A stretch of 64,000 bases of DNA from an uncultured virus (IMG/VR IMGVR_UViG_3300020375_000072) (lineage: Duplodnaviria > Heunggongvirae > Uroviricota > Caudoviricetes). Positions 37,108-56,220 of this stretch are shown one piece after another. Position numbers and translations under genes: made by a program. Position 1 is the first letter of the stretch; each line of letters begins with the position of its first letter. The notes beneath the pieces are model-generated. The model saw nothing but the letters and a program-made list of their open reading frames with translations. It ran no database searches and had not been told where the DNA came from. Location of the stretch: IMG/VR virus record IMGVR_UViG_3300020375_000072; one strand, given 5' to 3'.

Positions 37108-37917
37108 ATGAATTATTTTGGACCACATCATTCATCAGGGCAAAATCAATTAAGATTTGCTGCACCTATCGCTAATACTGATCACGGTATTACAGTAGGA
37201 CATTGTGATCATGATGGTACGGGAACTGGTCATATTATGACAGCAAATACGACTGGAGTATTTTTAGCAAATGCTCATATTATAGGAGATTTGACGGTAA
37301 CGGGAACAACAGTGTCTGGTGGAACTTCAGAAGAAACTGTTCTTGTAATTGAAGCTGCTTCAGCTCCAACCCCGACTACAAATTCATTATATAATTTATC
37401 ACCAGGGCCTCCTAGTGGTGGATTACACTTTCACGGAGTTAAATTATTAACTGGAACACTTACTGATAATAGAATTCCTGTTGTAGATGGTAATGGACTT
37501 TTGGAAGATACTTCAAATTGGACTTACACTGCGGGTTCTCCTAATGAAGTGTATCTTAATGGAGATATGAGTGTAACGGGTGATGTTATTACAGAATCTA
37601 ATTCTTCTGATGGTAGATTAAAAGATGTTCATTGCACTATTGATAATGGATTAGAGAGATTAAAACATATAAATCCAGTAGAATTCAAATGGAATAAAAA
37701 AGCACAAGATGAATTTGGGGCGGATGATGAAATGCATACCGGTTTAATAGCACAAGAAGTGGAAAAGGTTTTACCAGATATTGTAAAAAAGTCTTCTTGG
37801 AGCCGTGATTATAAGGCGATTAAATATGAGAGAATGGTTCCATTATTATTATCTGCTATTAAACAATTACAGAAAAAGGTTGATTCTTTAGAGGCTCAAT
37901 TAATGATTGGAAAATAA
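37108..37917 (+). CDS. tail-fibre protein with peptidase S74 intramolecular chaperone
   Basis: SDGRLKD, FKWN, GLIAQEVEKVLP, YERMVPLLLSAIKQL and a terminal coiled coil. Confidence 0.9.
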   Translation: MNYFGPHHSSGQNQLRFAAPIANTDHGITVGHCDHDGTGTGHIMTANTTGVFLANAHIIGDLTVTGTTVSGGTSEETVLVIEAASAPTPTTNSLYNLSPGPPSGGLHFHGVKLLTGTLTDNRIPVVDGNGLLEDTSNWTYTAGSPNEVYLNGDMSVTGDVITESNSSDGRLKDVHCTIDNGLERLKHINPVEFKWNKKAQDEFGADDEMHTGLIAQEVEKVLPDIVKKSSWSRDYKAIKYERMVPLLLSAIKQLQKKVDSLEAQLMIGK

Positions 37918-37920
37918 TAT

Positions 37921-39174
37921 ATGAAACAACAATTAAAATTTAGTCCAACATTAAGTGATATGGCTTTTCCTATGATTGAAGTGGACGCCGATACTGTAAC
38001 CGTAAAAATGTTTATAGACGTTTTTAAAGGTGAGGATGGACCTATAGATCCTGCGGCAACTCCACCGATTAATCATTTTTATGCTAATAATTGTTCTGAA
38101 CATTATGTTATGCAAAGACATAATGTAAGAATAAATGAGGGGGATACTTATGATATTTTTAATGGAGATATTTGGTCAGATGATTTAAATAAACAAGGGA
38201 GATGGTTTAAATTTGTTGGTGGAGCACAAATTAAAAGAAATGCGGACAAGACAGGAATAAAACTTCTTACTACAGTTTTTGATAGAAATGAGGAAAGTCC
38301 GGATGAAGGATTTGAAATAGGACCCAATATGCCTGAATGGCAAGATTGTTCAATGTGGGCATTTGATTATAGTTTCGCTGGTCAAAATTTTTATACTCCA
38401 TACAATTTATTTTTGGAAACAAAAGCAAGTCATTCTACAGGTTATAGATATGAAGCCAGAAGAAATTTTGTTTATAAACCAGTAATAACTGTAATGCAAG
38501 AAGGAAAAACATATTATTCTACGTCTGAACATCAAAAAAGAATGGTGGGAATGTTTTTATTTGATAAAGATGATGCCTTTACTAATGCGTCATTCTATGT
38601 TAAAACATGGGGAAAACCATTATATCAAAAAACAGAAACAGGATGGACAGCCTCTGAACTAGAACAAGCAGAAGATGCATTTAATACATTTTATAAACCA
38701 GAAGGAACCTTTTCTAAGTATTATAGACAAGACCATACATTATTGAATTATCAAACCTTACCGACACCTACTATATATGTGAATATTCCAGAAACAATTA
38801 ATAGAGATGATATTGTTAAAGGTAATGTTTCATTATTAGACTTGGATGATGTGTTACTAATGGAGGATGGAGATATTTTAATTACAGAGGGAATGGATGA
38901 ATCTTCAATAAGTTTACTTAGACAGGTGGATGAGTCACTTCAAGTTGATGGTGAACCAGAATCAAGCAAAATATTAAACAAAGATGTTTCAGTATATGTA
39001 AAATCCAATATGGGATATTTGGGAAAAAATAAAATTGAGTTAATTAACGGTAAGGGATCATTTTATTTCAGGGCATTAGATTTAGAAGTGGATGATGAAG
39101 TTAAATTAAAGATAGGATTTAAAACTTTTAGTAATGTAACTGAACAAAATATAAAAGTTATTTTGGGAGCATAA
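37921..39174 (+). CDS. hypothetical protein with beta-rich (Ig-like?) C-terminus
   Basis: 417-aa ORF in the structural operon; LLMEDGDILITE motif; C-terminal GYLGKNKIELINGKGSFYFRALDL. Confidence 0.7.
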   Translation: MKQQLKFSPTLSDMAFPMIEVDADTVTVKMFIDVFKGEDGPIDPAATPPINHFYANNCSEHYVMQRHNVRINEGDTYDIFNGDIWSDDLNKQGRWFKFVGGAQIKRNADKTGIKLLTTVFDRNEESPDEGFEIGPNMPEWQDCSMWAFDYSFAGQNFYTPYNLFLETKASHSTGYRYEARRNFVYKPVITVMQEGKTYYSTSEHQKRMVGMFLFDKDDAFTNASFYVKTWGKPLYQKTETGWTASELEQAEDAFNTFYKPEGTFSKYYRQDHTLLNYQTLPTPTIYVNIPETINRDDIVKGNVSLLDLDDVLLMEDGDILITEGMDESSISLLRQVDESLQVDGEPESSKILNKDVSVYVKSNMGYLGKNKIELINGKGSFYFRALDLEVDDEVKLKIGFKTFSNVTEQNIKVILGA

Positions 39175-39915
39175 ATGGCATTTTTTATAGGAGATAATTG
39201 TTGGGTTGATCACCCACTAACTACTTTAATGATTAATTTTAAAGAAGTGATTCATGATAATTTTGAAACGTTTTCTGATGAGACCTGGAAATGTAAACCA
39301 AAAGTTATTGCACATTTAAAAGTATATGGAAATCCAGTAGGAGGATTTTTAGGGGAACAACAGATGTGTGGCCGAGGTAGCGGTTATAATTTCAATTATC
39401 AATGTACTAAATATGTTGATGCAACAAACAAAGCTGGATTTTATTGGGATGGTCTTTCTAGTGGGTTTGAATGGTGTTGGAGTGAGCAACGTGATTGTGC
39501 TGCGGCGTGTTCAGGATGTATATGTCATTTTTGGAATTCAATGACCAGTACTGGTAATAACGGGGCATTCTTCTTTGAACCAATCTGTAATCATCAAACT
39601 CAAAATGTTGGAGGATCTGGTTCAATACGTGGAGATTATCAAGGTAGTCAATTGTATGATAAGTATAACGGTGCTTGGATGGTGGGTATATGTTTACATT
39701 CTGATTATAGATTAAAAGATAATATTACATTGTTACAAGAAGAAAAAGCTGGAATTCCCAATATCTACTCTTTCAATTATAAATGGGATACAAAAACCAC
39801 TTGGACCGGAGTTATAGCACAAGAATTACTTGATACTGGTTATTCTGATGCTGTAGGTGTAGATTCAGAAGGATTTTATTATGTAAATTATTCCAGATTA
39901 GGAGCAAAACAATAA
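39175..39915 (+). CDS. Cys-rich fibre-like protein with a short S74 chaperone domain
   Basis: 11 Cys before SDYRLKDNI...FNYKW...GVIAQEL...VNYSRL. Confidence 0.8.
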   Translation: MAFFIGDNCWVDHPLTTLMINFKEVIHDNFETFSDETWKCKPKVIAHLKVYGNPVGGFLGEQQMCGRGSGYNFNYQCTKYVDATNKAGFYWDGLSSGFEWCWSEQRDCAAACSGCICHFWNSMTSTGNNGAFFFEPICNHQTQNVGGSGSIRGDYQGSQLYDKYNGAWMVGICLHSDYRLKDNITLLQEEKAGIPNIYSFNYKWDTKTTWTGVIAQELLDTGYSDAVGVDSEGFYYVNYSRLGAKQ

Positions 39916-41214
39916 ATGGCATTTTATGTAGGTAGTAAAAAAGTTATTTCTAAACAAATGTTTATGGATGCATCCGGTAATACGAATAATGACGGTTCGA
40001 ATGTTACCGCCTGTGTATATCCTGGAGAAACATTTGGAGGATGTGGTGGAATAATGGCTACTAATCCTGGTGGTTGTTCCGGTTCAGTAGTCTTAGAACA
40101 TTCAGGTGGATGTGATCTGCCGGCAGGAGGAGGCATTGATAAATATCCATTTTTTTGTGATTTTGTTGGGAAAAAAGGTCCAACGCAAGATCCTGGGTAT
40201 ACTGGTAATCAAAATTGGGGCACGGGTAATCTCGACTGTCAATCACATTGGCACTTTTGCGATCAGTGTATGCCACCCAGGCAGTGTCAGGCTGATGGAA
40301 GTAGATGTTTATCTCATGTTATTTTTGGTTTTGGTCAATCAGAATATAGATCAGGAATGTTGGGAATTAATGGCCATTGGGGAGAAGGTGGAGCAGGATT
40401 AAATGCAACTCATAGTGCTGGAAGTTTAAGAACAAGTATGGTGTACACGGAGGGAGCACATAATGGAACAAATTATTGTTATCCTCATGGTGATGAATTT
40501 ATTTGGGATATGGAACGCTGTTGTGAAAGAGCATTCATAGGTGTAACTGGTTGGAGCGGGAGCACGGTATGTACTCAGCGGACAAATCAAGTTGCACATA
40601 ACTTATTTGAGGGCAACAACACGTTGGGGTATGGGAGAAATTGGCATACTGCTAGTTTAGATGGAACTGTTGGTGATGGTGGATATCTAGAAGTAAATCA
40701 TCAGCCGGGGAACAACGCGGGGGGCTGTGGTATTCGTTTCCACTGCACTTGCTTCTCAGATTGGTTTTGTACTGATGGAACTGGTAAAAATAAATTATGG
40801 GGATGTACAAACTGGGCTGCAGGGCCTGGTAGATTTGATGGAGATGGACAGGTGAGTACGGGGGAATATCCAGCCGGCTGTTGGATTTTTCCTCATTATT
40901 TCACTTGGTCTGGTGAACCAATTTGTAAAAGAGGATTTATGATAGGTATGGGCTGGGAAGCAGATTTTGCAAGTTGTGATCCTGGGTCAGATAGAAGAGG
41001 TAAGGTATTAAATTCGATAATGTTAAGGTGTGAAAATAATATGGGATTCATGGATGGCTGCGCGATAGATTATTGGTCAGGAGAATATTGTTGTTCCGGA
41101 GGATGTAATGGTACGATTAATGGTCACGCTAGACACGCAGGAGGATATGGAGAAGGTTCAGCTTTGTCATTTGTGACAGCGAAACAGGGTATTACTTGTG
41201 TGTGTTTTAGTTAA
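39916..41214 (+). CDS. Cys/Gly-rich protein
   Basis: 432 aa, about 29 Cys, ends ITCVCFS. Confidence 0.8.
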   Translation: MAFYVGSKKVISKQMFMDASGNTNNDGSNVTACVYPGETFGGCGGIMATNPGGCSGSVVLEHSGGCDLPAGGGIDKYPFFCDFVGKKGPTQDPGYTGNQNWGTGNLDCQSHWHFCDQCMPPRQCQADGSRCLSHVIFGFGQSEYRSGMLGINGHWGEGGAGLNATHSAGSLRTSMVYTEGAHNGTNYCYPHGDEFIWDMERCCERAFIGVTGWSGSTVCTQRTNQVAHNLFEGNNTLGYGRNWHTASLDGTVGDGGYLEVNHQPGNNAGGCGIRFHCTCFSDWFCTDGTGKNKLWGCTNWAAGPGRFDGDGQVSTGEYPAGCWIFPHYFTWSGEPICKRGFMIGMGWEADFASCDPGSDRRGKVLNSIMLRCENNMGFMDGCAIDYWSGEYCCSGGCNGTINGHARHAGGYGEGSALSFVTAKQGITCVCFS

Positions 41215-41224
41215 AGGATAAATT

Positions 41225-42019
41225 ATGGCGTTAAAATTTGGATCTAAGTCAGGAAAGCAGGGTGCGGGGTACGGCTCGCCCAACAGAATGCATGGAATGG
41301 AAGTACAATCTGATGGGTCGATAGCAATCTCTGCCAGTATGATTGATCCCATGTCAATTCCTGGACATTATGTTGCATCAAACTGGTTTATTAATTCTGT
41401 ATATATTAATAATACCGCAGGAGATGGTCAAACTAATCAAACGGGAAGTGGATTAAGATTTTATAATGTTAACAAAATGGGTATTTCGACGGGTGAAGGT
41501 GGTGGAAGACAATTAAGATTCGAATATACACAAAATTGTAACTGTAAGTGTAAATGCCAATGTAAGTGTAAATGCAAGTGTAAATGCAAATGTAAGTGTA
41601 AGTGTAAATGCAAGTGTAAATGCAAATGTAAGTGCAAGTGCAAATGTGCGTGTAAATGCAAGTGCAAGTGTAAGTGTAAATGCGCGTGTGCATGTTGGAG
41701 TGATGGAAGACTCAAGGAAAATGTTGAAGGAATGGATAATGGTTTAGAAAAAATAAAACAGATCCAATCCATCATGTTTAAATATAATGAGAAGGGTGTA
41801 GAATTTCAAGATGGAGAAGTTAATGAAAAAGATGCAGATGTTCAAGAATTGGGATTTATGGCTGAGGAAATAGAACAAGTATTTCCTGAAATGGTTGATA
41901 TGGTTGAGGTGGAAGATAAACAATATAGAGCGGTAGCATATGTAAAAATGATACCTGTATTATTGAATGCTATTAAAGAATTGAATAAAAAGGTTGAAGA
42001 TATAGAAAATAAGGAGTAA
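41225..42019 (+). CDS. (Cys-Lys)n tract protein with peptidase S74 chaperone
   Basis: AAGGA RBS; 27 alternating Cys followed by WSDGRLKENV...GFMAEEIEQVFP...YVKMIPVLLNAIKEL. Confidence 0.9.
   Translation: MALKFGSKSGKQGAGYGSPNRMHGMEVQSDGSIAISASMIDPMSIPGHYVASNWFINSVYINNTAGDGQTNQTGSGLRFYNVNKMGISTGEGGGRQLRFEYTQNCNCKCKCQCKCKCKCKCKCKCKCKCKCKCKCKCKCKCACKCKCKCKCKCACACWSDGRLKENVEGMDNGLEKIKQIQSIMFKYNEKGVEFQDGEVNEKDADVQELGFMAEEIEQVFPEMVDMVEVEDKQYRAVAYVKMIPVLLNAIKELNKKVEDIENKE
41537..41695 (+). repeat. 6-nt-period coding repeat (TGY AAR)n encoding (C-x)26-C
   Basis: A Cys codon every 6 nt from 41537 to 41693; x = 21 K, 3 A, 1 N, 1 Q; synonymous codons are mixed. Confidence 0.95.
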
Positions 42020-42022
42020 ATT

Positions 42023-42697
42023 ATGAATGTGATGATGTTAGATAATTATAGTATTAGAAAAGCTAATATTGTAATTTATAATGATTGTTTTTCACTTGAA
42101 CAATGTGACGAAATACAAGAGTTACAAAAAGGAAGAGATGTAATTTTATCAAATGATGATGAAAGTTTTTTATTAAATTATAAACATGGAAAGAGTTTAT
42201 ATTCTTATGAGAAAGTTATTTTAGATGATACATTACATATAAAGCAAGAAGAAGATAATCAACCAAAAAATGAAATTGAAATAAGGGCATTTGAATCAAC
42301 TCTTCCTAATAGTTTAGAAGACCATTTAATGAGTTATATTTTTGATGCAAATGTGAAAGTATTTGGTTATGAAATTTGGGGAATGGAAAAAGATCCAGAA
42401 ATACTTACATTTAAAAAAGATGATTTTTTTGGATATCATGAAAATATGTTATGGTATAGTGAAGAAGCAAATGATAGAAAATTGACGGGATATGTATATT
42501 TGTCAGACCATAATAAATCAGAAGGTGGAGAATTATTATTTGATAAAAGTCAAGATATATCTTCCCCTTTGGGAAATTATAATCTTAGGGGAAATTTAGT
42601 AATCTTCCCGTCTTTTTTATGTTATTCTTTTAATAAAATTAAAAGCGGATTTTTACAAGTTCTAGCTTTTGATATCATTGGTCCAAAATTAAAGTGA
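42023..42697 (+). CDS. 2OG-Fe(II) oxygenase-fold protein, iron ligands degenerate
   Basis: DRKLT, EGGEL, GNLVIFPSF and GPKLK align with 50554-51207; HxD reads HEN and the distal His is Tyr. Confidence 0.75.
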   Translation: MNVMMLDNYSIRKANIVIYNDCFSLEQCDEIQELQKGRDVILSNDDESFLLNYKHGKSLYSYEKVILDDTLHIKQEEDNQPKNEIEIRAFESTLPNSLEDHLMSYIFDANVKVFGYEIWGMEKDPEILTFKKDDFFGYHENMLWYSEEANDRKLTGYVYLSDHNKSEGGELLFDKSQDISSPLGNYNLRGNLVIFPSFLCYSFNKIKSGFLQVLAFDIIGPKLK

Positions 42698-42704
42698 GGT
42701 AATT

Positions 42705-43256
42705 ATGTTATATGATCATATTGTTTTTCCTGGTGCGGTAGAAGAAATTGTAGATGAAATGTCAATGTCAATGGGAGACTTACAATCCAAAGGAAATGCA
42801 TCTTCAGGTGCTGGTAAAAATGTTGAAGTTGATTGGTATGGTGGAGGTTATGTAAGTAATATTGAAGAAAATGTTTATTATTATTTTAAAAGAGCGAATT
42901 CTCTAAATTTTGGATATGATATATCCTATACCGAAGCTGTAAGGTGGGAGAAATATTCAAAAGGTGGAAGTTATTCAGTAAGAAAAGAATTGAACCATTT
43001 TTATCAAAATCATCTTGATAGAAAATTGGTTGCTGTAGTAAACATGAATGATCCCTTTGATCCAAAGGAAAAGGGAGGGAACATAGTTCTTTATGAATCA
43101 ACTAGAAAAAGAACAAGCCTTGATGATATTTTTTATCAGAAAAAAGGGGCGATAGCAGTTTTTAACGTATTCACAGGATATGAAATAGAAGAAGTTAAAT
43201 GTGAAGAAGGATTAACTTACTTATTCTGTTTCTGTGTGGGAGACAAATGGCGATAA
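42705..43256 (+). CDS. 2OG-Fe(II) oxygenase-fold protein, iron ligands absent
   Basis: DRKLV, GGNI, KGAIAVF and GDKWR align with its paralogues; no HxD. Confidence 0.65.
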   Translation: MLYDHIVFPGAVEEIVDEMSMSMGDLQSKGNASSGAGKNVEVDWYGGGYVSNIEENVYYYFKRANSLNFGYDISYTEAVRWEKYSKGGSYSVRKELNHFYQNHLDRKLVAVVNMNDPFDPKEKGGNIVLYESTRKRTSLDDIFYQKKGAIAVFNVFTGYEIEEVKCEEGLTYLFCFCVGDKWR

Positions 43257-45178
43257 ACAATATAGCAATATTAGGAAATACTTTAGAAGCAAAATTAGAA
43301 GCAATAACGATGCATCTTAGTTGTCCTAATGTTACTACTACAATTTATACAAATGGGCAGGAATATGAGAATCATGTAATGGTCCCTATTCAATATCCAA
43401 TGTGTTGTCCTGGAACAAGGTATTTGAATGAATATATCGGAATTAAAACTCAAGATCTATTTGAAAATACCAATACCACTGTGGCGATGGGTCAAAATTG
43501 GCAACACAATGATAATGGTATTGTTTCTAATGTTTATATAACAATGGTAAGTAATGTATTTCCTCTTATTATGACTCATTATCAATGTACAGTAAAAGGA
43601 TTTCATGTTGATGCAGATGAAAATGAACAAATTCGATTATTTTTTGAATGGATGAAATACAAATATCCAAATGAGTATTATTCTATTTTGGATATATGGA
43701 CATGGTTTTCTGCAGAGAGATTTCATAATACACCATTTCAAGAACATTTTTTTAATATGGAAAATGCAGTTATAAATTCAGCTCCTGATTATGGAGATTT
43801 TAATTGGGCTCATGCAATGCCGACATGTTATGATTTGGATGGAATGGTGACATTGTTAGATGCTAGAATTGCGTTTTTCAATATTCCTATTGTTACAGAC
43901 GTTATTGACAGCTTTACTATTGAACAAAAATCTCCGGATTTGGGTGCTGGTATTCGAGAAGAATCTTTTAATTGGAAATCATTAGATACTTATGAAGAAC
44001 AAAATTTTAATGATGATTTATTTGCAAAAGATTGGAAAAATATCACACACTTAACAATTGGTGGAGGTGATATTGATATTGATTTTGTAATTGATACTGG
44101 ATGTAATCATCCACAGATGACAGGTTTTATAGAATCTGATGAAGATTTGACAGAAGTGAATTCAACAATGCCCTGGACACAATACCGAGAATATGAATCT
44201 TCAAGACATAAAATGAGTTCTCATGCAGTTTATCAAGTTGATGGAATTCCAAATGGTGCAAGAGTTCATGAAGTTTATAGAGATAAAACGATACATAAAG
44301 AGTTTCAAATAGAAGATTCAAATTGTGATGCTGTTACTGGAAGTTATGCAGGAGAATTCCTTGCGGGAGCAAAAGATAATATTAAAACAGTTTCTTTAAG
44401 TGGAAGAAATGTACAAGATCGATTTATTATAAATGACAAATATAATTCAAATTATATAAGATTTGATATTAAGAGACAAGGATTAAATCCTGTGATGCAT
44501 GAAGAATTATCAAATGTTTTTAATTATGCATATATGTGTACAGAAAAATTAACAAATTGTATTGCAGATCCTGATAATTCTCCAATGTATTTGTCATCAG
44601 CACAATATCATTATAGAATTAATAGAGATGAATTTAAACAATTTGCTTATTATGTATGGGATAATAATACAATTGGTCCTGGTTGGGAATGGGCAAATTC
44701 TGTACCTTCCAAATATAAAAATTTATTTGATTCATGGAATGGTGATATACCAAAAGTTCCTCATGTAGCGGATTATTTGGGACATTCTTTATCTTCAACT
44801 TTTGTAACTAAATATGGAAATTCTCCTGGTGGAAGTAATTCTCCGAGTCGAGTGGCATGGCCGTATTTGGATTTAGAATATACATTCATTGCTGAAGCAA
44901 GAGGAAAAATAACAAAAGATTTTAGTAATAAATTTATTGGATATGAGGATATATTTGAGGATATTAGATTACTTTCTATTATGTTAAAATCAAAATTTTA
45001 TGAATTTGGCACATTAACTTTTGAGGAGTTTAGAGCTAAACATTTAGTTGGTGAAGATTCATTAACTCCCATCACAGCAAATCATATTTTGTTAGAAGAT
45101 GGAACAGGAAAATTATTAACTCGTCATAAGTATATTCAAATAAAAGAATATACATCATCAGAAGATAGTACTATTTAA
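43247..45178 (+). CDS. highly diverged flavin-halogenase-like protein (FAD motif lost)
   Basis: INNIAILGNTLEA replaces the GGGTAG loop; DFVIDTG; size and layout resemble 46004-47872. Confidence 0.5.
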   Translation: MAINNIAILGNTLEAKLEAITMHLSCPNVTTTIYTNGQEYENHVMVPIQYPMCCPGTRYLNEYIGIKTQDLFENTNTTVAMGQNWQHNDNGIVSNVYITMVSNVFPLIMTHYQCTVKGFHVDADENEQIRLFFEWMKYKYPNEYYSILDIWTWFSAERFHNTPFQEHFFNMENAVINSAPDYGDFNWAHAMPTCYDLDGMVTLLDARIAFFNIPIVTDVIDSFTIEQKSPDLGAGIREESFNWKSLDTYEEQNFNDDLFAKDWKNITHLTIGGGDIDIDFVIDTGCNHPQMTGFIESDEDLTEVNSTMPWTQYREYESSRHKMSSHAVYQVDGIPNGARVHEVYRDKTIHKEFQIEDSNCDAVTGSYAGEFLAGAKDNIKTVSLSGRNVQDRFIINDKYNSNYIRFDIKRQGLNPVMHEELSNVFNYAYMCTEKLTNCIADPDNSPMYLSSAQYHYRINRDEFKQFAYYVWDNNTIGPGWEWANSVPSKYKNLFDSWNGDIPKVPHVADYLGHSLSSTFVTKYGNSPGGSNSPSRVAWPYLDLEYTFIAEARGKITKDFSNKFIGYEDIFEDIRLLSIMLKSKFYEFGTLTFEEFRAKHLVGEDSLTPITANHILLEDGTGKLLTRHKYIQIKEYTSSEDSTI

Positions 45179-46003: not shown

Positions 46004-47872
46004 ATGTATATTGAAAAAATTGTTGTTGTGGGAGGCGGTACTTCAGGATGGATGACCGCATATTGGATGAGAAGACTTTTCCCTGATATAAAAATTACTG
46101 CAATTGTTAGTGAAGAAATAGATATTCTTGGTGCCGGCGAGGGCGGACTTCCAATATTTTTTGGATGGTTTAAACAAACAGGAATAGATTTAAAAGAATT
46201 TTTTCAATATACAGGAGCAACTGTAAAATTGGGAATTGATTATAGAGATTGGTATGCAAAAGGTTCAAATTTTTTACATCCTTTTACTGGTGATCTATTA
46301 AGAGTTGGTGATGTTTCATGGCCTACCTTAGAAGAAAGTCCCAAACCAGAAGAGCAAGATGAGGCGGCGAAATTAATATGGAACAAATTGACACCACAAG
46401 AACAAGAAGAAAAGATAAAAGAGTTGGATGGAGAACATACAGAATATGTAGATTTGTCAGATGAAAATAAAGAATTGATTAAAGATGGAGTGCTTGATGA
46501 AAATACAGAAGATATTATGCATGAATATGAAGAAGATCCGGATCTAGAAATACGTGATGTCAATAAACACTCAAGACGAGCATATGTAAACAGAGTTTAT
46601 AATGAACCTGAATTGAATTTTTTAGAATGGGCAAGTCCGTTCATGCATGATGGTATTCCTGATGAATCACTAGAAGATTTAATGAAAGCATTATCAGATA
46701 ATCAAATGAGTGGAGTTTCTTTACATTTTGATGCGATAAAGGTTGGAGAATTTTTCAAAGAAAAATGTGTTCAAGAAGGAGTACTTCATATTCCTGGTAC
46801 TGTCATTGATATCGAGAAAACTGCAGAAGGTATGATTACCGGAATAATTACTGATGATCAAGAAAAACATGAATGTGATTTTGTATTTGATTGTTCAGGA
46901 GAAAGAAGAGCAATTAGTTCTAAATTTGAAGAAGATAAAGATTGGTGGCCCTTTCCACATTTAACTTTAAATTCTGCTCTTCCTTTTAATTTAGAAAATG
47001 AAAAAGATATTGGTATGTGGACTGCTGCACAAGCTATGGATTGTGGTTGGATGTGGCAAATTCCATTACAGAATAGAATTGGTTGTGGTTATGTATTTGA
47101 TGACAGATTTATTGATTATGATTATGCTCAACAAGAAGTAGAAAAGTTTTTAGGTAAAAAAATAAATCCAATTAAACCTGTCAGTTTTAGGTCAGGATAT
47201 CTAGAAAAACCCTGGGCTTATAATTGTATTAGTATGGGAATGTCTCAAAGTTTTGTTGAACCATTGGAAGCAACTGCTTTGGGTTCTTTGTGTGTACAAC
47301 ATTTCATTCTAAGAGATATTATATATGCATTAGTAGAAAAATTTGAAGAAAAAAGAATTGAAGATTTCAAGGGTTGGAATGAAGTACATTGGGATGAAGG
47401 AGATTATTCTATAGCGCAACTTGAATATAATGCATTGTGTGGAAACATTATTAGAGAAATTGCGGATTTTGTACATTGTCATTATTATACTCCAAGAAAA
47501 GATACTGATTTTTGGGAATCTCGACAAGAATTATTTAATATGAATCAAGAAGAGTTTACAGGAGAGGGTGAATCTATGTCTCATAAATTGAAAGTATGGA
47601 AAGATACTCCTGTATATTATCAACCAGAGACAGAAGCGCAACAAATATACAATGAATTTAATTTAATTTGTGTATTTGATGGCTTAAATATATATGATAG
47701 AAAAGAAAGACAAAAATTAATGGCTAATTATCCTTATTTGATTAACTGGATGAGTGATCAAAATTTTGAAGATTGGAAAGAAATTTTTCAAGAAGAGAAA
47801 TTACAATTTAATAATGGAAGATTGAAACAATTTGATTATCTAAAAAAATATGAGTATCTTACTAAAACCTAG
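46004..47872 (+). CDS. flavin-dependent (tryptophan-halogenase-family) halogenase
   Basis: VVVGGGTSGW, GAGEG, ATVKLGI (catalytic Lys position), HFDA, DCSG, GWMWQIPL and FVEPLEAT; contains an acidic insert. Confidence 0.9.
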   Translation: MYIEKIVVVGGGTSGWMTAYWMRRLFPDIKITAIVSEEIDILGAGEGGLPIFFGWFKQTGIDLKEFFQYTGATVKLGIDYRDWYAKGSNFLHPFTGDLLRVGDVSWPTLEESPKPEEQDEAAKLIWNKLTPQEQEEKIKELDGEHTEYVDLSDENKELIKDGVLDENTEDIMHEYEEDPDLEIRDVNKHSRRAYVNRVYNEPELNFLEWASPFMHDGIPDESLEDLMKALSDNQMSGVSLHFDAIKVGEFFKEKCVQEGVLHIPGTVIDIEKTAEGMITGIITDDQEKHECDFVFDCSGERRAISSKFEEDKDWWPFPHLTLNSALPFNLENEKDIGMWTAAQAMDCGWMWQIPLQNRIGCGYVFDDRFIDYDYAQQEVEKFLGKKINPIKPVSFRSGYLEKPWAYNCISMGMSQSFVEPLEATALGSLCVQHFILRDIIYALVEKFEEKRIEDFKGWNEVHWDEGDYSIAQLEYNALCGNIIREIADFVHCHYYTPRKDTDFWESRQELFNMNQEEFTGEGESMSHKLKVWKDTPVYYQPETEAQQIYNEFNLICVFDGLNIYDRKERQKLMANYPYLINWMSDQNFEDWKEIFQEEKLQFNNGRLKQFDYLKKYEYLTKT

Positions 47873-48062
47873 AAAAATAAAAAAACATTCTATCAAAAAA
47901 GACTATTCTAAAATATCTACAACTGAGCAATATAAAGCTTTGGATTTAGATACATGTAAGAAGGTGACGTGTGTTCGTGGATATTCTTTTGATAGAAGAA
48001 TAAGTTATAAATTAGCATATGGAAACATGAATCTAATTTATGAAATGCATGGTAGAGATTAG
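47850..48062 (+). CDS. small hypothetical protein
   Basis: Fills the gap between genes; its stop overlaps the GTG of the radical SAM gene. Confidence 0.5.
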   Translation: MSILLKPRKIKKHSIKKDYSKISTTEQYKALDLDTCKKVTCVRGYSFDRRISYKLAYGNMNLIYEMHGRD

Positions 48063-49408
48063 TGGCAGATAAAGATTTAACATATACCTTACATTGCGAA
48101 GACGGTTCAAAATTATATTACAAACCACACCTTAGTAAATTAACTAATGAACAAGGACAGGATATGTATGCTAAAAATCCTGTTGGAATAAAAAAGGTAA
48201 ACAAGTGGTATGTGGAAGAACCAAAAGACCACAATCACATGCATGGTGTAGATCCTATTCATCCATTTTTTAATCCTGGAAAAAAAGTCAAAGAACCAAT
48301 GAGACTTAAAATTCAATTAGGATTGAAATGTAATTATTCATGTGAGTATTGTAGTCAAGCATCTTTTGTTCCTGAATCAACTGTCACGGGAGATGATGAT
48401 CTTGAAGAATTTATGGCAAAATTAGATGATAGATTAGATTTACAACATTGTTCTCTTGTGGAGGTTTGGGGCGGAGAACCTTTATTATATTGGAAAAAAA
48501 TAAAAAAACTAATTCCATTTTTAAAAGAACGTTGTCCAGAAGATGTAGAGTTTAGTATAGTCACAAATGGAAGTTTGATTACTCAAGAAAAAATAGATTT
48601 TTTTAAAAAGTATAAAATGGCAGTTACTATGAGTCATGATGGTCCTGGATATCATCTTAGAGGTCCAGATCCGTTAAATAATTCTAAAAAATTTAAACTT
48701 ATACAACAATTGTTAGAACTAAATGCTCAAGGAAAATTGGGATTTTGTTTTAGTATAGTTTGGACAAAAGAAAATACAAAAGATTTTGATGAAACGGTAA
48801 ATTGGTTTAAAGATAAATTTAATGATGAAAATGTTCCAGTGGGAGCAGAGGGTATAGTAGAAGCATATGATATTGACACCGCCATGAATACAAAAACTGG
48901 CAAATTTGATTATTCCGGTTTGGAAGATTTGGAAGAAAAAGTATTCAAAGGAATAACTGAAGGAAATCAACCACTTTTAGGCGTATTTACAACTGTAGAT
49001 AAGATTAATGAATTTTATGGTTCATTAATGTTTAAAAAAGATAGTGATACTTTAGGACAGAAATGTGGAATGGATCGAGATGATGATATTGCGGTTGATT
49101 TAAAAGGTAATGTTTTAACGTGTCAGAATGTTGGATTAGAAAGAAAACATTTATCAGGGCACATGGATGATTTAGAAAATGTTAGAACAAAATCGAGTCA
49201 ACATTGGAGTTGGCGAGATGAATGTTCACATTGCCCGGTACTACAATTGTGTCAAGGATCTTGTATGTTTTTAACTGGAAAAGAATTTGCACAGACATGT
49301 TGGAATGAATATGCATATAATCTAGGACATTTGCGTGGAGCAATTAAGTTGTTAACTGGAAAGACTGTTGTAGATATTGAAGGAAAACAAGTTAGACCAA
49401 AATTATGA
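48062..49408 (+). CDS. radical SAM/SPASM-domain protein (peptide/protein maturase-like)
   Basis: LKIQLGLKCNYSCEYCSQ, WGGEPL, IVTNG and MSHDG; SPASM-type QKCG...TCQN...CSHCPVLQLCQGSC...TC. Confidence 0.92.
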   Translation: MADKDLTYTLHCEDGSKLYYKPHLSKLTNEQGQDMYAKNPVGIKKVNKWYVEEPKDHNHMHGVDPIHPFFNPGKKVKEPMRLKIQLGLKCNYSCEYCSQASFVPESTVTGDDDLEEFMAKLDDRLDLQHCSLVEVWGGEPLLYWKKIKKLIPFLKERCPEDVEFSIVTNGSLITQEKIDFFKKYKMAVTMSHDGPGYHLRGPDPLNNSKKFKLIQQLLELNAQGKLGFCFSIVWTKENTKDFDETVNWFKDKFNDENVPVGAEGIVEAYDIDTAMNTKTGKFDYSGLEDLEEKVFKGITEGNQPLLGVFTTVDKINEFYGSLMFKKDSDTLGQKCGMDRDDDIAVDLKGNVLTCQNVGLERKHLSGHMDDLENVRTKSSQHWSWRDECSHCPVLQLCQGSCMFLTGKEFAQTCWNEYAYNLGHLRGAIKLLTGKTVVDIEGKQVRPKL

Positions 49409-52167: not shown

Positions 52168-52989
52168 ATGGAAACATCTGCAAAATTAAGAAATACTAAA
52201 GAATTAAAAACTTTTTCAAGAAATCATTTAAAAATAAGTGAAACGAAGAGTCGTAAACATTTATTCGAATATAGTGATAAAAATTATCATTTTGAGAATT
52301 TTCTCTCAGAGGAAGAAAGATATGATATTTTTAATCTACAAAAACTTCCACAAGGTGATACTCAAGGAAGATATCCGAGCATTTTTAAGGTACAAAGTGC
52401 TAAGTATGAAGAACTTTTGGAAAGAAGGATGGTATCATTAATGTTTCCGGATGAAGATCCTTCAATATTTACTATTAAAAATTCACTATCATTATTAAAT
52501 TTAGAACAACCAACCAAACCACATGTGGATGGGAATTATCCTCATGAAAATAAGTTTTATATAATCAAATCTTGTGTTGCTCTATTAGCTTTTGATACAG
52601 AGGAAGATGATGTTGATGATTTAACTACATCATTAATTACATTTAAACAGCATACAAATGAATATAAACGTGGTGGAATGGAATTAGATTATTGTTTTGA
52701 ACATAATACAGTACCTAAAGTCTGGGAGGATTTTAAAGGAAACAGATTAGAGAATCATAAAAATTCCTTTATACCAAAGGGGGAAGAGAAAGATTATCAG
52801 CACGTCACATTCACTCATGAAGGTCAAATGCAATATGGATTAGATATAGACAAAGAAATAGTAATGCACTTGGGAGATCTTGCCACATTTAATCCATATC
52901 AAATGCATATGACTAAGGGCTATGATGAACTCATTCCTGGTGGTAAATGGGCATTAAGAATAATTTTATATAAAAGAATTCATGAATAA
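52168..52989 (+). CDS. putative 2OG-Fe(II)/cupin-fold oxygenase
   Basis: PHVD...GLDID...GDLATFNPYQMH; paralogous to 54201 and 57672. Confidence 0.6.
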   Translation: METSAKLRNTKELKTFSRNHLKISETKSRKHLFEYSDKNYHFENFLSEEERYDIFNLQKLPQGDTQGRYPSIFKVQSAKYEELLERRMVSLMFPDEDPSIFTIKNSLSLLNLEQPTKPHVDGNYPHENKFYIIKSCVALLAFDTEEDDVDDLTTSLITFKQHTNEYKRGGMELDYCFEHNTVPKVWEDFKGNRLENHKNSFIPKGEEKDYQHVTFTHEGQMQYGLDIDKEIVMHLGDLATFNPYQMHMTKGYDELIPGGKWALRIILYKRIHE

Positions 52990-54211
52990 ATTTAAGCGTT
53001 ATTGTCCTATTCCATTTTTTAGTGTAGAGTTAAATAGTAATGAACATGCAAAATTGTGTTGTAATAGTGGTCATCGTTATACTATGGATGGTGATTTAAA
53101 ACATTTTTGGCATTCTGATAAAATGAAAGATATCAGAAAAAACATGTTAGATGATAAGTACTATGATGATTGTCAATTATGTTATCAAAGGGAAGAATTA
53201 TTTAATGATTCAAAACGCTTAGATGAACTTGTACGACAAGGAAAATATTACAAAACACCTTTAGCTTTTCCAACTTTTCTACAGCTTAATTTATCAAATA
53301 TTTGTAATTTAAAATGTATAATGTGTAGTCCAAAATATTCCACAAAATGGAATGAGGATGTTGATAAATTAAAGGGTATGAGAAAAAATCTTGTGAAAGA
53401 ATCCGCATCTAAATTATCAACTGAGGTGCTGAAAAGAACTATTAAAGATTTTATAGAGACAAGATCATTCGCGGAAAAGACTGTTGAGATTTATGGTGGT
53501 GAACCTTTCTTGTCTAAAGAATTTTGGAAAATTATTTCAGAAATACCATATAAAAAATTAAGAAATGTTATATTTAGATGTAATACTAATGGCACTATTC
53601 TTAATAAACCAATAATGGATGGCCTTAAAAAATTTAAGAAGGCTATGATTAATTTTAGTATTGATGGTATTGGAGATGTATTCGAATTTCAAAGGTTCCC
53701 CGCTAATTGGGAGAAAGTAAAGAAGAACATTCTCTATATGAAAGAGTTTGATAAAAGATTTAGATTTAAATTTAAATGCGATTTATATTTTACTTTAACT
53801 TCTTTTAGTGGTATAGGTTTGAAGGAATTTTTAGATTTTTGTAAAAAACATGATTTTGAATATTATATTAATATAGCAGATAATGAGCCACTAATAGATG
53901 TGAAAGATAGAAAAATAGTCAGAGATTCAAGAGAAGATCTTAATGAATGGGAAGAGCCGGAGTATTTTGGAGCAAAAGGATTTACTCATCCATGTATGTT
54001 ACCTGAAGTAGTAAAAGAACAAATATTGAGTGAAGTGGAATCTATGTTATCTCACAAAGATTATATTAAAATAAAGAATTCATTTAGTGATACAAAGGTA
54101 TTTAACGTAAAAATGTTAAATCAATTTCCAAATTATTGTGAACTATTGAAACAAGTTAGGGGGTTAGATTTTTTAAAAATGTTAGAAGAGAGATATAATT
54201 ATGCCTATTAA
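52982..54211 (+). CDS. radical SAM protein with N-terminal twitch/SPASM-like Cys domain
   Basis: YCPIPF...LCC...CQLC, then NICNLKCIMCSPKYST, GGEPF, NTNGT and FSIDG. Confidence 0.9.
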   Translation: MNKFKRYCPIPFFSVELNSNEHAKLCCNSGHRYTMDGDLKHFWHSDKMKDIRKNMLDDKYYDDCQLCYQREELFNDSKRLDELVRQGKYYKTPLAFPTFLQLNLSNICNLKCIMCSPKYSTKWNEDVDKLKGMRKNLVKESASKLSTEVLKRTIKDFIETRSFAEKTVEIYGGEPFLSKEFWKIISEIPYKKLRNVIFRCNTNGTILNKPIMDGLKKFKKAMINFSIDGIGDVFEFQRFPANWEKVKKNILYMKEFDKRFRFKFKCDLYFTLTSFSGIGLKEFLDFCKKHDFEYYINIADNEPLIDVKDRKIVRDSREDLNEWEEPEYFGAKGFTHPCMLPEVVKEQILSEVESMLSHKDYIKIKNSFSDTKVFNVKMLNQFPNYCELLKQVRGLDFLKMLEERYNYAY

Positions 54212-55055
54212 TGATATTATAATAATGGAAACGCCGACCACATTAAAACTATCAGATATGTTCGATAGATATATAGTAACTGATTCTAAGGATATAACTA
54301 CACATCCAGCAATTAAAGTTGATGGTGTGATGCAGGGAAAATATCGACATATTGATGAACTGAAAGCAGAAAATACTGGTGGGAAAACATTTAAATGGCA
54401 ATTAAATCTTCCAAAATTTAATAATGATTTAAGGTATTGGTTTAAAAAATTGTATAAAGAAGTTGATATTCCACTTGATTCACAAGTACATTGTTCAATG
54501 AAAAAATTACAACCATTGAGTCATCAAGTGCATACTGATAGTGATAATAATTATGGAGAACATCATGAAGTATATACTCGATTTTCAATACCGTTGACAC
54601 CTGGATCACCAACCACTTATTATGATAAATGCATGGATGATGATGATTTTAATGTTAGAGTAGATAAAACTAGTTTTAGGAAAGTTGGAAAAGATAATAA
54701 GTGGCAGGGCTTTGAACAAAAACATTTAAAGGATATGAAAACAGGAAAAGAAGTGCGGCTTGACTTACCAACTACGGAAGTTTTTAGAGAAGAATATATG
54801 AAGAAAATGAATCTAATGAATATTCCTGTACAACAAATGTATGGATTAAATATTCATACAATAGCAGAATGGAATCCTGGGGAAATTCAATTTTTCCCTT
54901 GTAGTAATTTACATAGTAGTACGGATTGTCGTGGTACAAAATTTGAAAAAAATGATGATGGAACATGGTATGAAAAGTATTTCTTGACAGGAATTATATT
55001 TAAACCAAAATCCGGAAGACACCAATTTGCATATGGAAATACCGAAAGCTATTGA
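54201..55055 (+). CDS. putative 2OG-Fe(II)/cupin-fold oxygenase
   Basis: VHTD...SIPL...GLNIH...WNPGEIQFFPCSNLHSS. Confidence 0.6.
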   Translation: MPINDIIIMETPTTLKLSDMFDRYIVTDSKDITTHPAIKVDGVMQGKYRHIDELKAENTGGKTFKWQLNLPKFNNDLRYWFKKLYKEVDIPLDSQVHCSMKKLQPLSHQVHTDSDNNYGEHHEVYTRFSIPLTPGSPTTYYDKCMDDDDFNVRVDKTSFRKVGKDNKWQGFEQKHLKDMKTGKEVRLDLPTTEVFREEYMKKMNLMNIPVQQMYGLNIHTIAEWNPGEIQFFPCSNLHSSTDCRGTKFEKNDDGTWYEKYFLTGIIFKPKSGRHQFAYGNTESY

Positions 55056-56220
55056 TAAATTAAGAATTGTTGGTTCTGGAACTGCCGGTTTGATATTTGC
55101 TACTTATTTTAAAAAAATGGTTCCAGACATGGAGATTGAGATTTATTATGACTCCAAGATAAAACCTCTGGTTGTTGGTGAAAGCATGCAACCATATATG
55201 AGATTCTTTTTTGAAAAAGTTTTTGAAGACGAATCTTGGATGGACAAAACAAACGCAACTTATAAATTTTATATTAAACATGATGGTTGGGCTTCCAAAG
55301 ATAGTTCAATGACATTTCCACTGTGTGATGATAGATTTGATAATATAGAAGAATGTGAAAGAGAAGTATTTTCAGCAACATCTACTAAATTACCATCATG
55401 TTCTTCAAGACATGCCTGGCAAATGCAATCAGTTCTATTGCAACCCATATTAATCGAAAAATGTGAAGAAATGGGAATCAAATTGATTGATAAGCATTTT
55501 GATTTTGATGATACTTCTGAATTTGTTATAGATTGTAGAGGATTTAAAGGATTAGAGGGAGGAAACATTTCTCCATTAATTATTAATGATACAGCAATTG
55601 CTGGACATGTTGATCATTTTGGTGATACTAAAGAAAGATATTATACAAGAACTATCGCAAAAGATAATGGATGGGCTTGGGAAATTCCATTACAAAATAA
55701 AGTAGGAGTTGGTAGAGTTTTTTGTTCTAGATATAATACTGAAGAAGAGATTAAAGAACAGTTATTAAAAACTTATGGATTAAAGAAGACTTTGACAGTT
55801 CCTTTTGTCACGAGATATAATACTGATGCATGTACCTCACAAAGCTTAAAAATTGGAACATCATCAGTATTCATAGAACCATTAGAAGCTACAACATTAT
55901 TATTAGTTGTATATTCTTGTTGGTTATTTAAAGAGATGTTAAAATCATTTCAATTTACAATTGATAAGTATTTTGTTGAACATTATAATAAAAATTATAG
56001 ACGGATGGTTGACCAACATGTTCTTTTTATTGAAAGTTTTTATGGATTATCAAATAGAGTAGATTCTCCTTACTGGCAAGAAATTGATAAACATCGAAAA
56101 GCTTTTAGAAAAAAGATTAATAAAAACTGGCCAGAATATTATGGAAATTATATAAAAAAGAAGGTATATGAAGGATTTGAATTCAAGCCATCTGGTATTG
56201 GAAGATACTTTAATATGTAA
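55027..56220 (+). CDS. flavin-dependent halogenase-family protein (short)
   Basis: IVGSGTAG, VGES, ATYK, IDCRG, GWAWEIPL and FIEPLEAT; start may be 55033. Confidence 0.88.
   Translation: MHMEIPKAIDKLRIVGSGTAGLIFATYFKKMVPDMEIEIYYDSKIKPLVVGESMQPYMRFFFEKVFEDESWMDKTNATYKFYIKHDGWASKDSSMTFPLCDDRFDNIEECEREVFSATSTKLPSCSSRHAWQMQSVLLQPILIEKCEEMGIKLIDKHFDFDDTSEFVIDCRGFKGLEGGNISPLIINDTAIAGHVDHFGDTKERYYTRTIAKDNGWAWEIPLQNKVGVGRVFCSRYNTEEEIKEQLLKTYGLKKTLTVPFVTRYNTDACTSQSLKIGTSSVFIEPLEATTLLLVVYSCWLFKEMLKSFQFTIDKYFVEHYNKNYRRMVDQHVLFIESFYGLSNRVDSPYWQEIDKHRKAFRKKINKNWPEYYGNYIKKKVYEGFEFKPSGIGRYFNM

Follow-up and report, generated by a model that had tools for sequence, protein, structure and literature searches.

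A gene in a 64,000-nucleotide stretch of DNA from an uncultured tailed virus (IMG/VR record IMGVR_UViG_3300020375_000072; the whole stretch is called the window here) encodes a protein, P0001, in which 27 strictly alternating cysteines lead directly into a self-cleaving Peptidase_S74 chaperone domain. Our comparison with other phage loci indicates, with a probability that we put at roughly 0.55, that P0001 is a hypertrophied, lysine-rich and S74-fused member of a phage module that pairs an Asn-Cys tract with a radical S-adenosylmethionine (SAM)/SPASM enzyme. P0001 itself would be a small virion protein of fiber type that forms trimers. In the loci compared, the motif Asn-Cys-Asn-Cys-x-Cys(-x-Cys) ends many phage fiber-type proteins and is inherited together with one family of such enzymes. 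A member of this family is encoded ~6 kb downstream of the P0001 tract on the same strand, and a same-strand enzyme is also found in three contigs carrying relatives of P0001 (L002, L003, and L004). Comparative genomics tips the balance slightly toward the tract being a substrate of this enzyme. That the modification would be thioether chemistry is suggested by analogy with known maturases and is proposed tentatively, at rather less than even odds.

In translation, residues 104 to 164 of P0001 read N-CNCKCKCQ-(CK)14-CA-(CK)5-CACAC-W-SDGRLK, with cysteines filling the odd positions from 105 to 157 and the period unbroken. The S74 family (PF13884) matches residues 159 to 224 over profile positions 1 to 57 of 58, with 50.6 bits against a cut-off of 22. 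Profile position 1 falls on Ser159 and a lysine lies at Ser+5, so that the Ser-Lys dyad motif S159-D-G-R-L-K164 is present. The predicted cut would separate Trp158 from Ser159, Lys164 being the second member of the dyad, and 30 PHROG tail-fiber families match residues 154 to 263. The translation and the start of the Pfam match at Ser159 confirm the arrangement that a sequence-only reading of this DNA had described, with the alternating cysteines placed directly before the S74 SDGRLK motif. Its observation that the codons are mixed also holds, with 17 TGT and 10 TGC for cysteine and 10 AAA and 11 AAG for lysine. At the DNA level the tract is a tandem repeat of period 6 with higher-order periods of 12 to 36 and 77 to 85% matches (Tandem Repeats Finder). 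Two minus-strand open reading frames (ORFs) lie opposite the tract (41461-41775, 104 residues, and 41469-41693, 74 residues). They are open because the repeat has no stops in that frame, and they were not treated as genes.

Searches with P0001 itself returned little beyond the S74 domain. Pfam gives PF13884 alone at E values up to 0.01 and NCBIfam gives nothing, so that no metallothionein or other metal-binding family was found by either; tblastn matched the S74 part only; and sequence searches of the PDB with the P0001 family profile, and with the metagenomic S74 protein P0157, gave no match. Residues 1 to 158 hit only S74 and tail-fiber clusters in the ESM Atlas, at scores of up to 0.82 that have the standing of leads.

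The enzyme belongs to the radical-SAM/SPASM class by its cysteines. In an alignment with its relatives (A4), the CxxxCxxC motif is invariant (C90, C94, and C97), and the C-terminal part contains C335-x13-G349-x4-C354, C388-xx-C391-x5-C397-x3-C401, and C413, which corresponds to what we take to be the defining seven-cysteine SPASM pattern. The enzyme aligns along the whole of the models for PapB, the SCIFF maturase, and the anaerobic sulfatase maturase (anSME), with scores that fall far short of the cut-offs; the best NCBIfam match, PapB, scores 70.8 bits against a cut-off of 340. The closest solved chains are 8vpo, 5wgg (which we take to be CteB), and 4k36. The only full-length relatives in cultured phages come from Achromobacter phage JWF and Ralstonia phage RSP15 (36 to 38% identity), and in both phages the enzyme gene lies one to two genes after tail-fiber genes. 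The JWF enzyme is 38% identical to that of the window and is encoded two genes downstream of the fiber PJWF_00028.

The evidence that most directly ties tract to enzyme is their co-occurrence. Alignment A4 finds 491 enzyme relatives in viral contigs, and the best 80 loci (1.01 Mb) were examined for tracts of at least four alternating cysteines. A tract on the same strand as the enzyme is present in 67 of these 80 loci, which together hold 78 such tracts, 64 of them preceded by asparagine, compared with two tracts on the opposite strand. The tracts start a median of 974 nucleotides upstream of the enzyme start. In 50 loci the tract ends within eight residues of a stop codon, in seven a Hint-like start comes next, and in three, all from the family of P0001, S74 does. 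As read from these loci, the C-terminal position of the tract is recurrent, with a stop, a Hint domain, or S74 coming next. Among 151 enzyme relatives in bacterial genome contigs, the best 80 loci gave a similar picture, with a same-strand tract in 58 against three opposite-strand tracts; these loci are probably prophages. Genome contigs with both enzyme and tract proteins (within L213-L292) come from Variovorax, Limnohabitans, Bradyrhizobium, Ramlibacter, Polynucleobacter, and others, and such genomes would provide hosts in culture.

The association also holds in reverse. A DNA pattern for N-C-N-C-N-C-x-C matched at least 80 loci in viral contigs, and the counts that follow are among the matches listed. 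For matches located within 25 residues of the stop in an ORF of 100 residues or more, a same-strand enzyme is present in 31 of 33 cases, and the contigs of the two exceptions extend just 1101 and 326 bp beyond the tract. Matches within ORFs shorter than 100 residues are accompanied by the enzyme in 3 of 41 cases and are mostly chance or unrelated small Cys proteins, while internal matches are accompanied by it in three of six. Collectively, the 67 of 80 viral loci and the 31 of 33 reverse matches lend strong comparative support to an option that the sequence-only reading had listed among several, namely that the tract is a substrate of the nearby SPASM enzyme. A set of small proteins of the type KCK-NCNCNCHC...HGD.YG.C.C..C (L101-L104, L111, L127, L145, and L166), with no radical-SAM gene in the DNA examined, constitutes an unrelated family of Cys-rich proteins in which the word NCNCNC also occurs.

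The proteins that carry tracts in other loci help to place P0001. They span 61 to 483 residues, and the canonical tract is usually N-C-N-C-x-C at the very C terminus of a fiber-like protein; the long carriers match PHROG tail-fiber families and collagen repeats. Hint profiles start directly after the tract in the JWF fiber and in six carriers from metagenomes. Indeed, PJWF_00028 reads ...PRQ-NCNCDCNCNCSC-FPAGTMVLMADG, an NCNC-opened alternating-Cys tract that runs straight into its Hint domain (Pfam Hom_end_hint, profile position 1 at residue 308, E 3e-12). The RSP15 side fiber ends ...SNTNCQCGN. The short carriers, of 61 to 111 residues, adjoin the radical-SAM gene, start MAYKVGTTIVIDD.G..DW.R, and end ...[YF]-N-CNCNCRC. 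A profile of 25 short carriers (A3) aligns with that of the window family (A5) from the first methionine through the tract (hhalign 97.5%, E 6.5e-12, 90 columns), a score owed partly to the tract itself, and BLAST with the P0001 N-domain alone found nothing outside the family. By this profile comparison, the N-domain of P0001 is homologous to the small MAYKVGTTIVIDD...NCNCxCRC proteins of other phages. The 114 distinct tracts outside the family, drawn from enzyme-selected loci, hold four to 12 cysteines, and asparagine precedes 94 of them. Their 440 filler positions are 50% Asn, 18% Ala, 17% Asp, 5% Arg, and 2% Gln, with no Lys. Read against these tracts, the window lineage has expanded the ladder two- to sevenfold, adopted lysine as filler, kept the opening N-C-N-C, and added S74 behind it.

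Other sequences with related features were seen in the course of these searches. Five of the best 80 viral loci encode a further class, ...NCNCACNC-SKIICAKL.... Proteins of ~300 residues encoded after the radical-SAM gene (L043:8209-9099, L075, L082, L089, L091, L129, L227, and L245) have the mid-protein motif ...SYNCNCACNC followed by SKIICAKL..., and their C-terminal half, which has no Pfam or PHROG match, could be a removable domain of a third type. Several metagenomic S74 proteins (P0022, P0157, P0111, P0062, and P0096, from a list enriched by the query profile) are CxC-rich just before SD..LK, as in CVCNSDCACNTVCTCNTDCQCNY-SDIRLK. A 255-residue metagenomic protein, P0006, contains NCNCKCKCDPDCACACECECKC..., a long CxC tract interrupted by DP/ES turns, and is hydrophobic toward its C terminus, so that it may represent a relative of the tract that is anchored in a membrane.

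The loci around the enzyme share further genes. In 120 enzyme-bearing loci the recurrent types are S74-ended fiber proteins (97), an accessory protein of ~300 residues (71), of which RSP15 gp047 is an example, and 2-oxoglutarate (2OG)-Fe(II)-oxygenase-like proteins (56), whose gene lies between the tract gene and the radical-SAM gene in many other loci. The window has all three types (37108-37917, 37921-39174, and 42023-43256), the last at the superfamily level.

The tract is authentic and its length is fluid. An assembly artifact, raised in the sequence-only reading as a possible source of the repeat, is contradicted by an independently assembled IMG/VR contig (L001) that carries the same gene with equal tract length and two synonymous differences within the tract. 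A further metagenome contig (L006) holds an identical tract gene, and the stretch is present in runs from 14 studies of marine metagenomes, and the Logan contigs of four runs break inside the repeat. A contig from an oligo-dT RNA library spans 40900 to 41952 with a 36-nucleotide in-frame skip at 41560-41597, which reflects either an allele with a shorter tract (21 Cys) or a collapse of the repeat in assembly. A record in ENA (P0004) joins the last 92 residues of P0001, at 100% identity, to part of a PF00291-type enzyme on a 1.2-kb contig and is probably a chimeric assembly.

Relatives of P0001 (P0002, P0003, P0005, L002-L004, and L007-L010) hold the cysteine period over 12 to 29 cysteines while third codon positions vary. 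All family tracts open with Y-[TS]-[TQ]-N-C-N-C-K-C-K-C, and the NCNC start is conserved, as is the C[WL]-SD end. The nine family tracts available as DNA contain 243 Cys codons (142 TGT and 101 TGC), and their 243 filler positions are occupied by Lys (166), Ala (26), Gln (14), Asn (11), Leu (10), and a small remainder of other residues. Between L003 and L009 there are six synonymous changes and no nonsynonymous one in 58 tract codons, compared with 19 synonymous and four nonsynonymous over the 240 codons of the whole gene. Tract length changes fast in the family, with every variant in frame; P0003 and L002 carry 12 and 25 cysteines, respectively, between flanks that differ at only three of 196 compared residues. 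The mixed codons and the synonymous-only tract differences between L003 and L009 support selection at the protein level, as the sequence-only reading had proposed. Its stronger statement, that substitutions never fall on cysteine, stands for the general period but not without exception, as one Cys position of P0002 is taken by Trp, and in L004 the register shifts by one residue (CWCGKCKC) close to the tract end. In a profile search of 1.84 billion representatives, P0002 was the one full-length match, and the long-tract S74 form is rare.

How such a protein might mature can be outlined from the known behavior of its parts. S74 domains, as described in an excerpt of PMC8326128, trimerize, fold an upstream trimeric beta-helical stalk, and release themselves by a Ser-Lys dyad cut before the serine. 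In P0001, the S74 domain would gather three chains, with the tract cysteines turned toward the three-fold axis and the lysines outward. The SPASM enzyme would modify the tract, most likely by a thioether from a Cys sulfur to a carbon of a neighboring residue or chain. The S74 domain would cut itself off before Ser159 and leave a cross-linked ...CACACW, which would form the fiber's free C-terminal tip or shaft, and S74 or Hint would each serve as a removable assembly aid. The maturase NxxcB forms a beta-thioether from Cys to Asn, its native acceptor, and tolerates Ala, Gln, and Asp, according to part of PMC9389541; PapB joins Cys to Asp, Glu, or the C-terminal residue, according to part of PMC12373016. 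Since the canonical fillers are the same residue set as the NxxcB acceptors, and the tracts are C-terminal or become so, enzyme-made thioether links would be favored over other chemistry, with the caution already expressed.

Structure prediction was consistent with a trimer. With three copies of P0001, ESMFold2 gave an ipSAE interface score of 0.77, compared with 0.00 for the best of three controls; the mark was calibrated on solved proteins, being reached by 20 of 30 solved as pairs and by one of 23 solved as single chains, and the P0001 run, unlike the calibration, relied on its own alignment and on three copies. Agreement between runs extends to at least 43% of contacts, with a predicted local distance difference test (pLDDT) value for the partner of at least 50. 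The modeled interface is formed mostly by residues 155 to 264, and the tract residues within its confident part (117, 119, 121, 123, 135, 137, 139, and 141) are all Cys positions, which gives weak support to an arrangement with Cys inward and Lys outward. The sequence-only reading had expected the tract to form the free C terminus of a trimer. The trimer is indeed what the model predicts, but the free C terminus is not universal, as a sister subgroup of the family lacks SD..LK.

Several points weigh against assigning P0001 to a tract and enzyme module with this chemistry. First, all 57 NCBIfam matches of the enzyme, including PapB, SCIFF, anSME, and QhpD, lie below cut-off, so that it has no named equivalog, and because it falls below every curated cut-off its chemistry cannot be assigned. 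The nearest solved chain, 8vpo, is reportedly cited in a paper on cyclopropyl synthases. Second, five genes separate tract and enzyme in the window, compared with none or one in most loci. Third, the census counts come from related and partly redundant loci and are not independent events, and even so 13 of the 80 viral loci and 22 of the 80 bacterial loci lack a tract of at least four cysteines; of the 13, seven have less than 2.2 kb of upstream DNA and six have enough. Fourth, Lys occupies 21 of 27 non-Cys positions in the window tract and none of 440 in the other tracts. As this filler is confined to the window family, the expanded part of the tract may not be a substrate at all. Fifth, the sister subgroup (L003, L004, L009, L010, and P0005) has a divergent C-terminal domain with neither SD..LK nor a Pfam S74 match, and its tract, lacking the dyad, would stay internal. 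Finally, the trimer score may reflect memory of solved S74 trimers, and the overall pLDDT is only about 50. AlphaFold2 models of the P0001 monomer (seven sequences; mean pLDDT 39.7) and of a small tract protein (25 sequences; mean pLDDT 51.5) were too poor and were not used for fold searches. The trimer geometry, the order of events, the modification, and a role in infection are what we infer beyond anatomy, conservation, and linkage.

Of the alternatives, the one that survives best, though improbable, is a plain cysteine core or disulfide ladder, a narrow triple-stranded beta shaft joined by inter-chain disulfides in oxic seawater with no enzyme acting on it. The segment before S74 is normally a trimeric beta-helical stalk, as the same excerpt states (PMC8326128), the adjoining structural proteins are also very Cys-rich, and the free in-frame variation in length between P0003 and L002 would be expected of an adjustable shaft. 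However, the linkage between tract and enzyme would be left unexplained, three cysteines per layer could not all pair, and C-terminal tracts of four to five cysteines would be too short for a shaft.

A metal-thiolate or Fe-S wire, which the sequence-only reading had suggested by analogy with T4 gp37, is less probable still. In such a wire a column of metal would run between the Cys layers on the three-fold axis, and the enzyme would be unrelated or an assembly helper. The CxC spacing sets successive thiols on one strand face, the Cys positions point toward the other chains in the trimer model, and the adjacent lysines would, by general chemistry, favor thiolates, but the Cys layers of an extended strand would be ~6.8 Å apart, too far for one ion with metal-sulfur bonds of 2.3 Å, and only in-plane three-Cys sites would fit, unlike with the longer side chains of His. 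The tract contains no His, and thus lacks the HxH motifs of a gp37-type metal needle, so that the comparison with gp37 is an analogy. The CxC-rich segments before the cut in the profile-enriched set of S74 proteins named above fit a wire, yet S74 is the only Pfam match of P0001, with no metallothionein or other metal-binding family detected, and neither the near-obligate SPASM pairing nor the preference for Asn, Ala, and Asp as fillers is explained.

Lower again in probability is a polycationic adhesion needle, in which the 63 outward lysines of a trimer would bind anionic cell-surface polymers and the cysteines would be a scaffold. Many fibers carry receptor-binding tips at the C-terminal end, the cleaved tract would be such an exposed end, and Lys is the filler at 166 of the 243 positions in the family. 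But the absence of Lys from all 114 tracts outside the family makes this needle, also an idea of the sequence-only reading, a lineage-specific add-on at most, and a polycationic role cannot be what the motif did ancestrally. A polycationic role is compatible with the tract belonging to the enzyme module and does not compete with it. A neutral hypervariable microsatellite or assembly artifact with no role at the protein level is highly improbable, for although the DNA is a tandem repeat whose length differs between close relatives, with the 36-nucleotide skip in one RNA-library contig, its length recurs in an independent assembly and its sequence in runs from 14 studies, all length variants are in frame, the codons are mixed with synonymous differences, and the NCNC start and C[WL]-SD end are conserved.

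The wider possibility is that tailed phages commonly staple the C termini of their fibers with a dedicated SPASM enzyme, acting on an Asn-Cys ladder that a stop, Hint, or S74 leaves exposed. We regard this as speculative and doubtful as yet. Stapling of this kind would place thioether bonds within or between the three chains and would amount to the chemistry of RiPPs (ribosomally made peptides with post-translational modifications) on a structural protein of the virion. In the marine lineage of P0001, a ladder of 27 rungs with a coat of Lys would give a nonreducible, polycationic nano-rod of roughly 10 to 18 nm at the fiber tip, whose length would change by in-frame gain and loss of repeats.

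If the enzyme does act on the tract, the link of its family to tail-fiber genes across hundreds of loci in phages and prophages would imply that the organelles with which phages recognize their hosts are chemically modified by the phages themselves. Current models of how fibers assemble, how stable they are, and which hosts they reach include no such step. Enzymes of the radical-SAM/SPASM class are familiar for producing small modified peptides. The literature searched, with subscription journals outside its scope, contained nothing on alternating-Cys fiber ends or on radical-SAM enzymes acting on phage fibers. The (CK)27 protein would be the most extreme substrate candidate and, being small and expressible with 27 potential sites, would offer a handle on the action of the enzyme. 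Protein engineers would also take an interest in a Cys/Lys rod that assembles and cleaves itself and can be cross-linked by an enzyme. Such modification would in addition account for the unexplained radical-SAM cassettes in the host-recognition clusters of marine T4-like phages, as these are described in part of PMC7029224.

Table 1. Coordinates in the window of the tract protein, the enzyme, and neighboring genes
Feature	Position	Strand	Remarks
Tract protein gene P0001	41225-42019	+	264 residues: N-domain, (Cys-X)27 tract, S74 self-cleaving chaperone
N-terminal part, residues 1-104	41225-41536	+	Starts MALKFG, ends ...LRFEYTQN
Tract, residues 105-158	41537-41698	+	CNCKCKCQ(CK)14CA(CK)5CACACW; 27 Cys, 21 Lys
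Peptidase_S74/intramolecular chaperone domain, residues 159-264	41699-42016	+	Pfam E 2.4e-13; PHROG
Radical-SAM/SPASM peptide-maturase-like enzyme	48062-49408	+	Pfam Radical_SAM and Fer4_12; SPASM pattern; co-occurrence with tract
S74-ended small fiber-type protein P0008, no Cys tract	37108-37917	+	Pfam E 9.5e-13
P0011 (417 residues), accessory family member	37921-39174	+	hhalign 99.5%, E 2.8e-23, 202 columns
Two Cys-rich structural-type proteins	39175-39915, 39916-41214	+	Putative module members, by position only
Two 2OG-Fe(II)-oxygenase-like genes	42023-42697, 42705-43256	+	Pfam 2OG-FeII_Oxy_3, E 4.1e-5 and 2.1e-3

The larger genes of the window all lie on one strand and include a primase, a ribonucleotide reductase, a thymidylate synthase, and large structural proteins. 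The primase shares 45% identity with those of T4-like cyanophages. Megablast of positions 39000-44000 found no match at the DNA level among cultured phages, and the nearest record (G001, 31.6 kb) is without the tract gene. The tract gene comes from an uncultured marine T4-like phage, and its surroundings are similar to the "host recognition cluster" of marine T4-like phages. In pelagimyophages, an excerpt of PMC7029224 describes this cluster as tail fibers intermixed with radical-SAM cassettes.

The two 2OG-like genes lie directly 3′ of the tract gene, and both of their 2OG-FeII_Oxy_3 matches are below the Pfam cut-off. Their family aligns with the 2OG-like cluster of other radical-SAM loci (hhalign 84 to 89%, E about 1e-5), which points to a shared superfamily and to relationship at that level only. 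Upstream, the protein encoded at 39175-39915 starts MAFFIGD and ends in an S74-like domain (ICLH-SDYRLK), and that at 39916-41214, of 432 residues and rich in Cys, Gly, and Trp, starts MAFYVGSKKV and ends ...GITCVCFS. Both starts resemble the MALKFGSKSG of the tract protein, and the three consecutive genes from 39175 to 42019 may share one N-terminal docking motif. Elsewhere in the window are a twitch-domain radical-SAM protein (52982-54211), whose NCBIfam score of 228 bits exceeds the cut-off of 170, a third radical-SAM gene (22370-23413), and two Trp-halogenase-like flavoproteins (46004-47872 and 55027-56220). All four stand outside the wider tract module. Beyond the family, the window's Trp-halogenase-like genes and most of its 2OG genes turn up in two radical-SAM loci at most, and an idea of halogenase/QhpG-type Cys-Trp chemistry at the terminal CW was dropped on that ground.

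Comparison with known systems shows where P0001 and its enzyme agree with each and where they depart from it. Metallothioneins share the high Cys content, the C-x-C spacing, and the Lys neighbors (CxC and CKC motifs), but P0001 matches none of their families and has a strict period of 2 over 54 residues, a fiber context, and a radical-SAM partner. In the receptor-binding needle of T4 gp37, iron is held by HxH motifs on the trimer axis, and the tip is not known to be produced by S74 cleavage. P0001 would resemble it, by analogy only, in having residues of metal-ligand type at alternate positions along a trimer axis close to the tip of the fiber, while it has Cys for His, far more such residues, and no sequence similarity. 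Among S74 tailspikes and fibers, for which the endosialidase K1F type is an example of the intramolecular chaperone, the likeness lies in profile position 1 at Ser159, the Lys at +5, the helical C-terminal part, and the predicted trimer. In contrast to known cases, where the stalk is a triple beta-helix of ordinary sequence, the stalk of P0001 is a pure (Cys-X)n repeat; the mature protein would have 158 residues, and the dyad is lost in the sister subgroup. The Hint fiber PJWF_00028 of phage JWF also has an NCNC-type tract at a self-cleavage site with the same radical-SAM family encoded downstream, but it has six cysteines rather than 27, Hint rather than S74, and the form of a long fiber with Shufflon_N-like repeats.

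The ranthipeptide and sactipeptide systems (NxxcB/NxxcA, PapB/PapA, and CteB/SCIFF) share with the window the CxxxCxxC and seven-cysteine SPASM motifs of the enzyme and provide its best profile and structure matches. In both, the partner protein has a dense Cys motif, and the Asn, Asp, and Ala neighbors in the tracts are acceptor types of NxxcB and PapB; the use of a C-terminal residue by PapB parallels the C-terminal position of the tracts. The differences are that the window enzyme reaches no curated cut-off, that the carriers are proteins of 61 to 483 residues, many with tail-fiber profiles, collagen, Hint, or S74, rather than short leader-core precursors, and that the spacing is C-x-C rather than CxxxD or NxxC. 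The phage module also differs from radical-SAM/SPASM RiPP systems in its coupling to self-cleaving domains and, in the window, in its larger scale. Judged by these comparisons, a radical-SAM/SPASM RiPP system is the closest known kind, and what is new here would be the candidate substrate in a virion fiber, the spacing, the coupling to self-cleavage, and the scale.

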